Positions 25,848 through 28,429 of a stretch of 64,000 nucleotides of DNA are shown here, piece by piece (the first letter of the stretch is position 1; each line of letters begins with the position of its first letter). A model generated the notes under the pieces. It searched no databases. It was not told where the DNA came from and saw nothing but the letters and a program-made list of their open reading frames with translations. The translations under genes and the position numbers were made by a program. This DNA is from Escherichia coli (lineage in GTDB: Bacteria; Pseudomonadota; Gammaproteobacteria; Enterobacterales; Enterobacteriaceae): NCBI RefSeq assembly GCF_016903815.1, contig NZ_CP069973.1; one strand, written 5' to 3'.

Positions 25848-26161
25848 AACGACCTACGTTAATTACCTCATTGACGGCATGAAGTGTATCAAAATGAAAT
25901 GAACAGGATATGTGCGACCACTCACAAATTAACTTTCAATACTTTTCAGGGTATCGTTATTCCAATTAAATATCTTTATATATCAATAAGTTAAAGTATA
26001 AAAATCAGCATAAACCCTGATTTTTGTCAAAAAAAATGACGGGGATAACCATATTTTATGGCGATAACATTATTCGTTATGTGGTTAATACAAAAAAGGG
26101 GCTGAGACCATATTTCAAGCAATTACCGGATAATTACCAGGCAAATTTTGAGTTAAATTTA

Positions 26162-26380
26162 ATGAGCAAGTTCTCAAATTTTATTATAAATAAATCATTT
26201 TCAGCGATAAATAATGCGGCACGTCACATTTTTTCACGCTATTTGTTGGAGAACAAACATTTATTTTATCAATATTTTAAAATTTCGAATACAGGTATTG
26301 ATCATCTCGAACAATTGATTAACGTCAACTTTTTCTCTTCTGACAGGACGTCATTTTGTGAATGCAATCGTTTTCCATAA
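26162..26380 (+). CDS. tdcR: tdc operon regulator TdcR (72 aa; ORF could extend to 26024)
   Basis: ORF 26024..26380; C-terminal 72 aa MSKFSNFIINKSFSAINNAARHIFSRYLLENKHLFYQYF... match TdcR; divergent from tdcA; AT-rich. Confidence 0.7.
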   Translation: MSKFSNFIINKSFSAINNAARHIFSRYLLENKHLFYQYFKISNTGIDHLEQLINVNFFSSDRTSFCECNRFP

Positions 26381-26635
26381 ATTCTTCTCCCCTCATAGGT
26401 GACGAATAGCATTTTGTGTTGAGGATCACAAAACGAATAATTGCTGGTCGCCGCGATAAGGTCAGCCAAAGACAACAAGGGGAATTTTCACAGAGCTTTT
26501 GATCGGCGTAGGCCACAGAATGTTGCTTCGTTTACTGTAATGCCGGGTAAATGAGCGTTTTTTGATAGTGCGAAAGTGCCGTGCGAGGAAAATAAGCATC
26601 TATTATTGTTTGTCATGATGACAAGGCAGGCATCA

Positions 26636-27175
26636 ATGAAAGGCTTCCCAATTGCACATATTTTTCACCCTTCAATCCCGCCAATGCACGCAGTGGTTAA
26701 CAATCACAACAGAAATATTGATTATTGGACGGTAAAAAGAAAGTTTGCAGAAATTGTCTCCACCAATGACGTTAATAAAATATACAGTATAAGTAATGAA
26801 CTGCGGAGAGTATTATCTGCAATTACTGCATTGAACTTCTATCAAGGCGATGTTCCTTCTGTCATGATTCGAATCCAACCGGAAAATATGAGTCCATTCA
26901 TCATAGATATTTCTACAGGAGAACATGACGATTATATCATACAAACATTAGATGTAGGCACTTTTGCACCTTTTGGCGAACAATGTACTTGCTCAGCCGT
27001 CAATAAAAAAGAGCTGGAGTGTATTAAGGAGACGATTTCTAAGTATTGTGCAAAATTCACCCGAAAAGAAGCCATCTTAACCCCCCCTACGTACTTTAAT
27101 AAAACCGCCATTCCTTCAGATTGTTGGCAAATTCTCTTTTTTTCACCCGATCATTTTAATAATGATTTTTATTGA
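26636..27175 (+). CDS. yhaB: uncharacterised protein YhaB
   Basis: ORF 26576..27175; MKGFPIAHIFHPSIPPMHAVVNNHNRNIDYW... (179 aa); low-GC coding sequence. Confidence 0.75.
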   Translation: MKGFPIAHIFHPSIPPMHAVVNNHNRNIDYWTVKRKFAEIVSTNDVNKIYSISNELRRVLSAITALNFYQGDVPSVMIRIQPENMSPFIIDISTGEHDDYIIQTLDVGTFAPFGEQCTCSAVNKKELECIKETISKYCAKFTRKEAILTPPTYFNKTAIPSDCWQILFFSPDHFNNDFY

Positions 27176-27196
27176 TTATTTATGAAGGATAAAATA

Positions 27197-28384
27197 ATGT
27201 CCCCTGTTTCATCAATTGGTAATGATATTAGTAGTGATTTAGCCCGTCGAAAAATGAATGACCTTCCTGAAAGCCCCATAGGAAATAACCTCGAAGCACT
27301 AGCACCAGGCATAGAAAAACTAAAACAGACCTCTATTGAAATGGTCACTTTACTTAACGCGTTACAACCAGGTGGGAAATGCATTATCACTGGTGATTTT
27401 CAAAAAGAATTAGCGTACTTACAAAATGTAATTCTTTATAATGACTCCTCTCTTCGTATGGATTTTTTTGGTTATAACGCCCGAATTATTCAACGATCAG
27501 ACAATACCTGTGAACTTACAATTAATGAACCGTTAAAAAACCAGGAAATATCCACAGGCAATATCAATGTTAATTGCCCATTGAAAGACATTTACAATGA
27601 AATCAGGAGGTTGAACGTAATCTTTAGTTGTGGGACTGGAGGTATAGTTGATCTATCCTCTCTGGACTTACGGAATGTCGATTTAGAACTTTATGATTTT
27701 ACAGATAAACATATGGCCAATACAATTTTAAATCCTTTTAAATTGGATGACACAGATTTTACTAATGCCAACATGTTTCAGGTAAATTTCGTTAGTTCAA
27801 AACAAAACGCCACAATCTCATGGGATTATTTACTAAAAATAACGCCTGTTATAACAAGCATTAACGATATGTATTCTGAAGAAAAAATTAAGCTTGTCGA
27901 AAGTTGTTTAAATGCGCTTGGAGATATTACCGAAGAACAATTAAAAATTATGAGACTTGCAATTATAGAATCTATACCAAGAGCAACTCTAACAGATGAA
28001 TTAGAAAATGAATTAACAAAAGAAATATATAAAAGCTCATCGAAAATTAACAATTACTTGAGCAGAATTAAATTACCAGAGATGAAAGCATTCTCATTAG
28101 AAAAAATAGATTATTACATCGATATAATCATTAAAGATTATGAAAGCGTCAAAGAAAATGCTTATCTAATCGTTCCAAAAATTAATTACAATACAGATTT
28201 AAACATAGAGGACTCTAGCTCAGAGGAATTCCTTCCAGATAATACAATCGAGAAAGACGAAAATTCTCCAGACAATTGCTTTGAAGTCGTAAAATATAAT
28301 ACATATGAAGCTTATAACTCAGAGAAGCAATATTATACCAGAGAGGACTATACGTATGATTACGACCTTTTAAATGCAATATAG
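27197..28384 (+). CDS. yhaC: uncharacterised protein YhaC with short pentapeptide-repeat-like segment
   Basis: ORF 27182..28384; MSPVSSIGNDISSDLARRKMNDLPESPIG... (395 aa); segment LSSLDLRNVDLELYDFTDKHMANTILNPFKLDDTDFTNANMFQVNF; low GC. Confidence 0.75.
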   Translation: MSPVSSIGNDISSDLARRKMNDLPESPIGNNLEALAPGIEKLKQTSIEMVTLLNALQPGGKCIITGDFQKELAYLQNVILYNDSSLRMDFFGYNARIIQRSDNTCELTINEPLKNQEISTGNINVNCPLKDIYNEIRRLNVIFSCGTGGIVDLSSLDLRNVDLELYDFTDKHMANTILNPFKLDDTDFTNANMFQVNFVSSKQNATISWDYLLKITPVITSINDMYSEEKIKLVESCLNALGDITEEQLKIMRLAIIESIPRATLTDELENELTKEIYKSSSKINNYLSRIKLPEMKAFSLEKIDYYIDIIIKDYESVKENAYLIVPKINYNTDLNIEDSSSEEFLPDNTIEKDENSPDNCFEVVKYNTYEAYNSEKQYYTREDYTYDYDLLNAI

Positions 28385-28429
28385 ACTTAATAACTTCTTA
28401 CAAAGTCTATTATTAATACCGTAGATATT

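Follow-up and report, generated by a model that had tools for sequence, protein, structure and literature searches.

A low-GC tdcR-yhaB-yhaC block of apparently two ages in Escherichia coli and a putative short pentapeptide-repeat segment in YhaC

Between tdcA and rnpB of Escherichia coli lies a low-GC (guanine plus cytosine) block encoding tdcR, yhaB and yhaC, which we have analyzed in a 64,000-nucleotide stretch of contig NZ_CP069973.1 (hereafter, the window; the block occupies its positions 25848-28400). Comparison with related genera indicates that this block is composed of two parts of different age, an ancestral control region of the tdc operon and an insertion of ~2.3 kb carrying yhaB-yhaC. 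The explanation that we consider probable as a whole is that an AT-rich tdc control region inherited from a common ancestor was joined by a yhaB-yhaC operon older than the split of E. coli and E. albertii, and that YhaC is a multi-part pentapeptide protein. The genes as such, their low GC content, a predicted foreign origin and binding of H-NS are already known from databases and papers. Modest additions to the existing annotation are the assignment of a pentapeptide segment in YhaC and a species-level divergence of yhaB-yhaC alleles under purifying selection.

Composition, divergence and selection

The GC content of the block is 0.338 as compared to 0.510 for the whole window, and in a sliding profile the block is the minimum among all stretches of 2553 bp, 4.3 standard deviations below their mean. 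The low-GC block with tdcR, yhaB and yhaC, which a preceding sequence-only reading had noticed by eye, is thus borne out as the lowest 2.5-kb stretch of the window. By part, GC amounts to 0.31 in the tdcA-tdcR spacer, 0.30 in tdcR, 0.37 in yhaB and 0.32 in yhaC (0.28 at third codon positions of the latter), vs. 0.42 in tdcA, 0.53 in garK and 0.62 in rnpB on the flanks. Rare codons make up 13% of yhaC vs. 4-7% of the flanking genes, and in both yhaB and yhaC the first codon positions are richer in GC than the second and third ones. Matches to the H-NS consensus TCGATAAATT with at most two mismatches occur at 3.5 per kb in the block vs. 1.5 per kb (2.4 times denser), an enrichment that for the most part re-expresses AT-richness. 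The block contains 16 promoter-like sites with 12.4 +/- 3.5 expected from its composition, i.e., no excess.

Both yhaB and yhaC are genuine genes, coding for proteins on which purifying selection of moderate strength acts. Frames of 389-395 codons stay open in yhaC across alleles in DNA of 32% GC, and the ratio of nonsynonymous to synonymous divergence (dN/dS) is well below 1, which together argues for selection at the protein level. Against a strain with a YhaC allele of 63% protein identity, the synonymous divergence (dS) of the flanking genes tdcA, tdcB and garK is 0.06-0.12 with dN/dS of 0.00-0.03; the respective values are 0.52 and 0.23 for yhaB and 0.55-0.63 and 0.31-0.39 for yhaC. Along yhaC, dN/dS stays at 0.15-0.5 over most of the gene, reaching 0.7-0.9 in the tail only. 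For tdcR the ratio between E. coli alleles is 0.8-1.1, which makes TdcR the weaker case as a protein on selection evidence.

The 63% allele is rare in E. coli and occupies the same locus; 19 complete genomes carry it, with DNA identities of 60-80%. When the window is aligned with strain L006, DNA identity is 97-99.7% outside and 70-87% inside a divergent zone from approximately 26150 to 28700, which coincides with the low-GC zone. Since a comparison of E. coli with E. albertii gives dS of 0.40-0.78 for the flanking genes tdcA, tdcB and garK (1.0-1.7 vs. Salmonella), the distance of the yhaB-yhaC alleles within E. coli (dS of 0.52-0.63) is that of genes from two sister species. Between the window and the common allele, that of K-12, dS is 0.20 in yhaC and 0.05 in tdcA. 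This divergence may have one of three sources: selection that has preserved old alleles, introduction from a sister lineage, or accelerated change of AT-rich DNA that is only weakly expressed. One further allele (P0028) is of the common YhaC type up to approximately residue 235 and of the 63% type after it, being apparently an intragenic recombinant.

By family assignment, the three products are ordinary members of their families, with no difference seen: TdcR of NCBIfam NF008507 (168 bits, cut-off 100), YhaC of NF007262 (859 bits, cut-off 765, coverage 1-395/395) and YhaB of PF27690 (UCP004546). The YhaB and YhaC families carry no functional information. YhaB has no relatives past its own family and gave no match in the PDB (profile search), the local Pfam copy, PADLOC or PHROGs; neither YhaB nor YhaC gave a meaningful match among PADLOC-DB defence models and PHROGs. 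The single PADLOC-DB match of TdcR (E = 0.027) is at chance level. The sequence-only reading named no assigned biochemical function for any of the three, which holds for YhaB and YhaC and fails for TdcR, an annotated transcriptional activator.

A different interpretation of these genes is that they are decaying passengers devoid of function and made harmless by H-NS silencing, the pentapeptide segment being a fossil of a larger repeat protein. The pattern of loss speaks in its favor. At least 80% of yhaC is present in 4314 of 5426 complete E. coli genomes, and one common deletion junction is shared by 1062 of the 5426. The scar joins yhaB codons 1-34, yhaC codons 91-111 and yhaC codons 383-395, and it is carried, among others, by Nissle 1917, which we take to be of phylogroup B2. 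With a separate loss in E. albertii, yhaB-yhaC have been lost repeatedly; K-12 retains an intact yhaC (~92% DNA identity to that of the window). The closest relative, strain F5446 (NZ_CM153269.1, 3125193-3129170), is 100% identical to window positions 25600-28800 and has in addition ~777 bases annotated as IS1 transposase inside the block, whose disruption by an insertion of IS1 size is evidently tolerated. Also in line with passengers are the absence of any match of YhaB or YhaC to a functional family, the elevated dN/dS of the YhaC tail and several natural YhaB alleles that are frameshifted in the C-terminal third (the first ~125 residues are well conserved). Nevertheless, dN/dS of 0.23 in yhaB and 0.15-0.5 in most of yhaC at dS above 0.5, the frames of ~390 codons open at 32% GC in all allele classes, and the period-5 conservation and conserved C-terminal motif described below point to selection on the protein, and we consider this interpretation unlikely.

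Two ages of the block and origin of yhaB-yhaC

The two-part structure emerges from comparing the surroundings of tdcA in Salmonella enterica, Citrobacter freundii and E. albertii with the spacers of the window. The order garK-rnpB-tdcA is kept in all three; in Salmonella and Citrobacter it comes with ~800 bp, and yhaB-yhaC are absent. The first 430-530 bp beside tdcA, i.e., the spacer and the tdcR sequence (positions 3-526 of the block), align with Salmonella and Citrobacter at 68-69% at the same place, which is why we take this part to be ancestral and to have always been AT-rich; ~600 bp beside tdcA align with E. albertii at 79%. Beyond tdcR, ~180 bp of Salmonella stand against ~2285 bp of E. 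coli (roughly 26375-28660). E. albertii lacks yhaC and keeps a yhaB remnant (codons 8-46 at 54% identity), hence an entry of yhaB-yhaC before the split of E. coli and E. albertii, followed by loss in the latter.

The tdcR frame is open only in Escherichia and is intact in E. coli. Its E. albertii counterpart is 60% identical and has Ile in place of Met at the start, and those of Salmonella and Citrobacter are interrupted by in-frame stops. The last codons of tdcR (26350-26380, SFCECNRF, DNA ...TTTTGTGAATGCAATCGTTTTCC) are recognizable in E. albertii, and FCERNRL is found in Salmonella despite the broken open reading frame (ORF). The TGTGA-N6-TCGTT core at the 3' end of tdcR resembles a CRP half-match, and conservation at this point may be that of a DNA site and not of a protein.

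The phylogenetic distribution of yhaB-yhaC, which the sequence-only reading had named as a check, is confined to E. coli and Shigella (apart from the E. albertii remnant), for full-length YhaC down to 63% identity as well as for YhaB. A search of 5.8 billion clustered proteins and an exhaustive one of 1.84 billion representatives gave no homologue outside this range, aside from the pentapeptide-segment matches to repeat proteins described in the next section. A scan of one genome each of 100,044 species with two strict peptide patterns, which divergent copies could escape, gave no genuine yhaC outside E. coli. Its only two matches were E. coli-like contigs in metagenome-assembled genomes of Collinsella sp. 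(L004) and an uncultured Bacteroides sp. (L005); their yhaC, of E. coli type at 93% and 87% identity, most likely reflects a binning error.

The suggestion of the sequence-only reading that the block is horizontally acquired DNA wedged next to core genes therefore divides in two: it stands for yhaB-yhaC, which are missing from Salmonella and Citrobacter while synteny is kept, and falls for the spacer and tdcR, which are ancestral. Even for yhaB-yhaC there is a point on the other side, as no donor or mobility gene gives direct support for horizontal transfer: a search for flanking repeats and the annotation of neighbouring genes yielded no integrase, tRNA gene or bracketing repeat marking the insert. 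Among the features of an H-NS-silenced foreign island, yhaB-yhaC thus display AT-richness and absence from Salmonella and Citrobacter at conserved synteny, and no donor or mobility signature. Integration at the 3' end of rnpB via att-like direct repeats was considered and dropped, since the rnpB-terminator copies all lie within 28446-28797 and are also found in Salmonella.

These negative results would suit an origin in place, i.e., expansion of the ancestral AT-rich spacer by the tdc promoter with birth of new genes. No donor homologue turned up in the 1.84 billion representatives or the 100,044 species genomes, no integrase or att-type flanking repeat was found, and the adjoining spacer and tdcR are ancestrally AT-rich, with tdcR itself looking like an ORF opened only in Escherichia. 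On the other hand, a 395-codon gene with a canonical repeat segment and a 179-codon partner are hard to derive from ~180 bp, the boundaries of the insertion against the conserved flanks are sharp, and the composition methods cited in PMC3661553 flag the genes as foreign. An origin in place appears to us improbable, and an insertion from elsewhere remains the preferred account of yhaB-yhaC.

The pentapeptide segment of YhaC

We conclude that YhaC in all likelihood holds a short, divergent pentapeptide-repeat segment, putatively forming ~2.5 turns of a four-sided beta-helix, that behaves as a member of the family would and yet falls short of formal Pfam membership. Residues 151-200 read VDLSS LDLRN VDLEL YDFTD KHMAN TILNP FKLDD TDFTN ANMFQ VNFVS, i.e., ten in-register pentads with L, L, L, F, M, L, L, F, M and F at their centres; none of 20,000 shuffled versions of YhaC reached ten (maximum 9, mean 2.9). 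With ten tandem units, the segment exceeds the 8 units of the A(D/N)(L/F)XX type, hydrophobic at the centre, that we asked of a pentapeptide-repeat protein.

The wider relationships of this segment were assessed with a YhaC profile built from 12 alleles and run on every one of the 1.84 billion representative proteins. Besides E. coli fragments it matched only long repeat proteins, more than 50 of them, each aligned solely to YhaC residues 140-215 and in 3-12 places, with E-values (for the whole library) as low as 6e-11 and best single stretches of 35-36 bits. Pfam Pentapeptide was found at E <= 0.001 in all eight of the matched repeat proteins that were checked, and 41 pentapeptide fragments align in register with YhaC almost free of gaps. 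In a profile search of the PDB, Np275/Np276 ranked second at a marginal E-value of 0.024. The best single-stretch distant match (P0115, 230 aa) has pentapeptide repeats joined to a TIR domain, the similarity being confined to the repeats; another match (P0113) was disregarded as a chimeric junk ORF.

A third kind of evidence is provided by conservation with a period of five. In the four-sided beta-helix of pentapeptide proteins, the central residue i and residue i-2 point inward, the other positions facing the solvent. Among alleles of 63% identity, conservation in the YhaC segment is 100% at i (30 of 30), 63% at i-2 and 70% at i-1, as compared to 30% at i+1 and 20% at i+2, so that the inward/outward pattern expected of a beta-helix matches the conservation of i and i-2 and the freedom of i+1 and i+2. 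The peptide of five-residue period quoted in the sequence-only reading is thus present, and the likeness to pentapeptide-repeat proteins that it proposed is upheld by three independent lines of evidence, namely periodicity beyond chance, profile matches to members of Pfam Pentapeptide, and period-5 conservation. Its own check, a beta-helix from structure prediction, had no clean outcome: the best PDB matches are all pentapeptide proteins, and confidence remains low with no match at E <= 0.001.

Several observations count against the assignment. Pfam significance was not reached (Pentapeptide_4, E = 0.058; Pentapeptide, E = 3.2), and when PF00805, PF13599 and PF13576 were run on the 12 YhaC alleles, none gave a match at E <= 0.001 and two of 12 did at E <= 0.1. 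AlphaFold2 (AF2) with an alignment of alleles only produced no fold (mean predicted local distance difference test score, pLDDT, of 34), the segment being coil at pLDDT of ~28. With an alignment enriched in pentapeptide fragments, residues 152-190 reached pLDDT of ~53 with beta bridges every 5 residues, a predicted model that is partly circular, being biased to a pentapeptide outcome. The top PDB matches of this biased, low-confidence model in Foldseek are all pentapeptide proteins (alr1298, Np275, HetL, MfpA and QnrB1; E >= 0.088), and Np275 superposes on it with a root-mean-square deviation of 0.9 A over 50 columns. Overall, support for the putative beta-helix comes from the sequence and its evolution and not from a confident structure prediction.

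Could the five-residue period be due to chance or to the composition of an AT-rich ORF, with no beta-helix in YhaC? The sub-threshold Pfam scores (two of 12 alleles at E <= 0.1), the coil predicted from alleles alone and the marginal E-values of the PDB profile (0.024) and Foldseek (>= 0.088) searches would all be consistent with it. Such an origin is hard to reconcile with the failure of all 20,000 shuffles to reach ten pentads, E-values down to 6e-11 against true pentapeptide proteins, fragments aligning in register, and a centre conserved in 30 of 30 cases vs. 20-30% at i+1 and i+2; we regard it as quite improbable.

In comparison with known pentapeptide-repeat proteins (Np275/Np276, alr1298, HetL, MfpA, Qnr), YhaC is alike in its tandem pentads and in the frequent D or N before the centre. 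It differs by having only ~2.5 turns, placed inside a larger protein otherwise without relatives, and by i-2 residues that are often large (V, L, Y, K, F) and not Ala. Dimers of MfpA and Qnr imitate DNA, for which the YhaC segment is too short. No paper linking YhaC to pentapeptide repeats was found in the library searched.

Outside the segment, the low-confidence models suggest that residues 60-125 form a small alpha/beta region and residues 210-320 helices, with a tail that lacks structure. The N-terminus is polar and Ser-rich with no signal peptide. The net charge is -26 for the whole protein and -12 for the tail (residues 321-395), which is composed of 13% N, 13% Y, 12% E and 11% D, so the Glu/Asp/Tyr-rich tail of the sequence-only reading is present and rich in Asn as well. 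Residues 321-383 are the most variable part of YhaC (32% identity between alleles) and are predicted to be without structure. The last 12 residues, (D/E)YTY(D/N)YDLLN(A/E)I, retain 83% identity in alleles that share 63% overall, as would be expected of a short functional motif. Two marginal domain matches were taken as chance: the N-terminal domain of FolD (methylenetetrahydrofolate dehydrogenase, PDB 5zf1) against YhaC 32-142 (27290-27622; E = 0.009), which we think fortuitous although the N-terminal region offers no other lead, and the C-terminal domain of LinB against YhaC 238-317 (E = 0.077 in the PDB, 0.18 in Pfam).

Pentapeptide stretches also occur in effectors of type III secretion systems, EspX and NleL among them, and such effectors are low-GC and lineage-specific. 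YhaC resembles PipB, PipB2 and EspY3 in having a short pentapeptide run within an otherwise unrelated protein (runs of 8 and 9 units in EspY3, ~30 pentapeptides in PipB2; PMC6313403), and its low GC, lineage restriction, fast evolution, Ser-rich N-terminus without signal peptide and conserved C-terminal motif would suit an effector of such a system (ETT2 or LEE). It differs from PipB2, EspY3 and EspX in showing no similarity outside the repeats (none outside residues 140-215 among the 1.84 billion representatives), no WEX5F motif (the sole Trp, W209, is followed by Asp) and no secretion context, its locus not lying beside secretion genes. Moreover, an intact yhaC is kept by K-12, which is not known to have a working type III secretion system, and a role of YhaC as a secreted effector is very improbable.

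Regulation, proposed role and neighbouring features

Published K-12 data bear on regulation of the block. Table 1 of PMC3661553 lists two "promoter islands", one of 477 bp at tdcA/tdcR and one of 706 bp within yhaC. Composition-based methods predict both to be foreign DNA, and H-NS is marked as bound to the yhaC island in all chromatin immunoprecipitation (ChIP) studies and to the tdcA/tdcR island in two. The block of the window is like these H-NS-bound AT-rich islands in AT-richness and lineage restriction, and differs from them in having no excess of promoter-like sites and in the ancestral state of its spacer and tdcR. A ChIP-chip peak of FNR has been assigned to yhaB (PMC1802558), and TTGATTAACGTCAA, inside tdcR, is an exact match to the site under this peak. 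Likewise, TGTGTTGAGGATCACA exactly matches an in vitro CRP footprint assigned to yhaB (PMC12871828).

In the mechanism that we propose, yhaB-yhaC would normally be silenced by H-NS, as the K-12 binding literature suggests, and may be switched on along with the anaerobic, catabolite-sensitive tdc operon in anaerobic, catabolite-poor conditions. YhaC would be a cytoplasmic, strongly acidic protein built of an N-terminal alpha/beta region, a ten-pentad beta-helix, a helical region, a disordered acidic Tyr/Asn-rich tail and the 12-residue motif. Judging, with low confidence, by this architecture and the evolutionary pattern, it may act as a binding or adaptor protein and not as an enzyme. The outward residues of the beta-helix together with the tail could offer a fast-changing contact surface for a changing partner (phage, competitor or host factor), YhaB possibly being a co-expressed partner of YhaC. 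A further step, decidedly doubtful in our view, would be that the very old yhaB-yhaC alleles (dS of 0.5-0.6) are kept or exchanged in E. coli owing to an involvement of YhaC in a conflict with phage, competitor or host, in which the outward face of the helix and the tail set specificity and the C-terminal motif docks. Such an arms race, if true, would give a handle on two long-standing E. coli genes of unknown function (y-genes); if nothing but relaxed constraint on silenced DNA underlies the divergence, the locus is an ordinary one.

A number of considerations weigh against this mechanism. It is drawn from architecture and evolutionary pattern alone. The H-NS, FNR and CRP data come from K-12, whose yhaC has ~92% DNA identity to that of the window. 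Although yhaC is reported among the 14 strongest signals of positive selection across 92 E. coli genomes (PMC9110714), our pairwise estimates gave dN/dS above 1 in no part of yhaC (maximum 0.92, in the tail), and the published signal could stem from recombination between old alleles. High dS could also come in part from codons being weakly constrained, or from silent AT-rich DNA mutating at a higher rate, instead of from old alleles. The four alternatives (passengers, origin in place, chance periodicity and type III effector) were weighed and placed below our explanation.

The features of the block and of its flanks are collected in the table. The window corresponds to the chromosomal region of E. 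coli that contains tdc, rnpB and gar, according to RefSeq annotation of matching genomes, and positions 7197-48384 differ by 1 mismatch in 41,188 bases from strain 7/2 of E. coli (NZ_CP023820.1, isolated from human faeces). The start codon of yhaC lies 21 nt past the yhaB stop. A published list has yhaB-yhaC as a young two-gene operon (PMC12218254). A mechanical ORF list has longer forms of YhaC (400 aa, ATG 27182) and YhaB (199 aa, GTG 26576); the annotated starts are favored because a GAAGGA Shine-Dalgarno sequence stands 7 nt upstream of ATG 27197 and AAGGCAGG precedes ATG 26636.

Table. Features of the tdcA-garK interval in the window (positions in nucleotides).
Feature	Position	Strand	Description
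tdcA	24909-25847	-	312 aa
tdcA-tdcR divergent spacer	25848-26161		AT-rich, ancestral, outside the insertion
tdcR	26162-26380	+	72 aa; annotated transcriptional activator TdcR (RefSeq, NCBIfam NF008507)
FNR-like site TTGATTAACGTCAA	26315-26328	+	within 3' part of tdcR, upstream of yhaB
Putative Escherichia-lineage insertion (approximate)	26375-28660		tdcR-yhaB spacer, yhaB, yhaC and 3' spacer; zone of greatest divergence among E. coli strains
CRP site TGTGTTGAGGATCACA	26415-26430	+	~205 bp upstream of yhaB start codon
yhaB	26636-27175	+	179 aa; precomputed Pfam PF27690 (UCP004546)
yhaC	27197-28384	+	395 aa; NCBIfam NF007262
YhaC residues 151-200	27647-27796	+	ten tandem pentapeptide repeats
YhaC residues 321-383	28157-28345	+	N/Y/E/D-rich tail
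YhaC residues 384-395	28346-28381	+	conserved C-terminal Tyr-acidic motif
yhaC-rnpB spacer	28385-28774		REP-type repeat and degenerate copies of rnpB 3' end/terminator
rnpB (RNase P RNA)	28775-29151	-	core gene bounding the block; Rfam RF00010, 318.6 bits
garK	29184-30329	-	381 aa

Downstream of rnpB, the degenerate copies of its 3' end and terminator lie at 28446-28475, 28612-28684 and 28732-28797, with a 113-bp spacing; the yhaC-rnpB spacer of K-12 is ~230 bp longer, and partial rnpB-terminator copies occur in Salmonella too. The REP-type (repetitive extragenic palindromic) repeat at 28564-28602 has 9-46 matches per E. coli genome and inflated the match counts of the genome search. On the other flank, an E. 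coli TdcA-like ORF of 496 aa (P0194) is 100% identical over the query and carries in addition a precomputed reverse-transcriptase domain (PF00078), which may reflect a retroelement inserted in tdcA of one strain. Farther away, an IS1 copy at approximately 10410-11107 (by identity with the strain 7/2 annotation) is located just upstream of yhaH, and a low-GC dip at 11100-12200 spans yhaH and the gene next to it, both of the DUF805 type. Downstream of the block, the strain 7/2 annotation also places the prlF-yhaV toxin-antitoxin pair at approximately 35561-36360 and, at approximately 37400-47900, an aga/kba gene cluster for N-acetylgalactosamine that seems complete.

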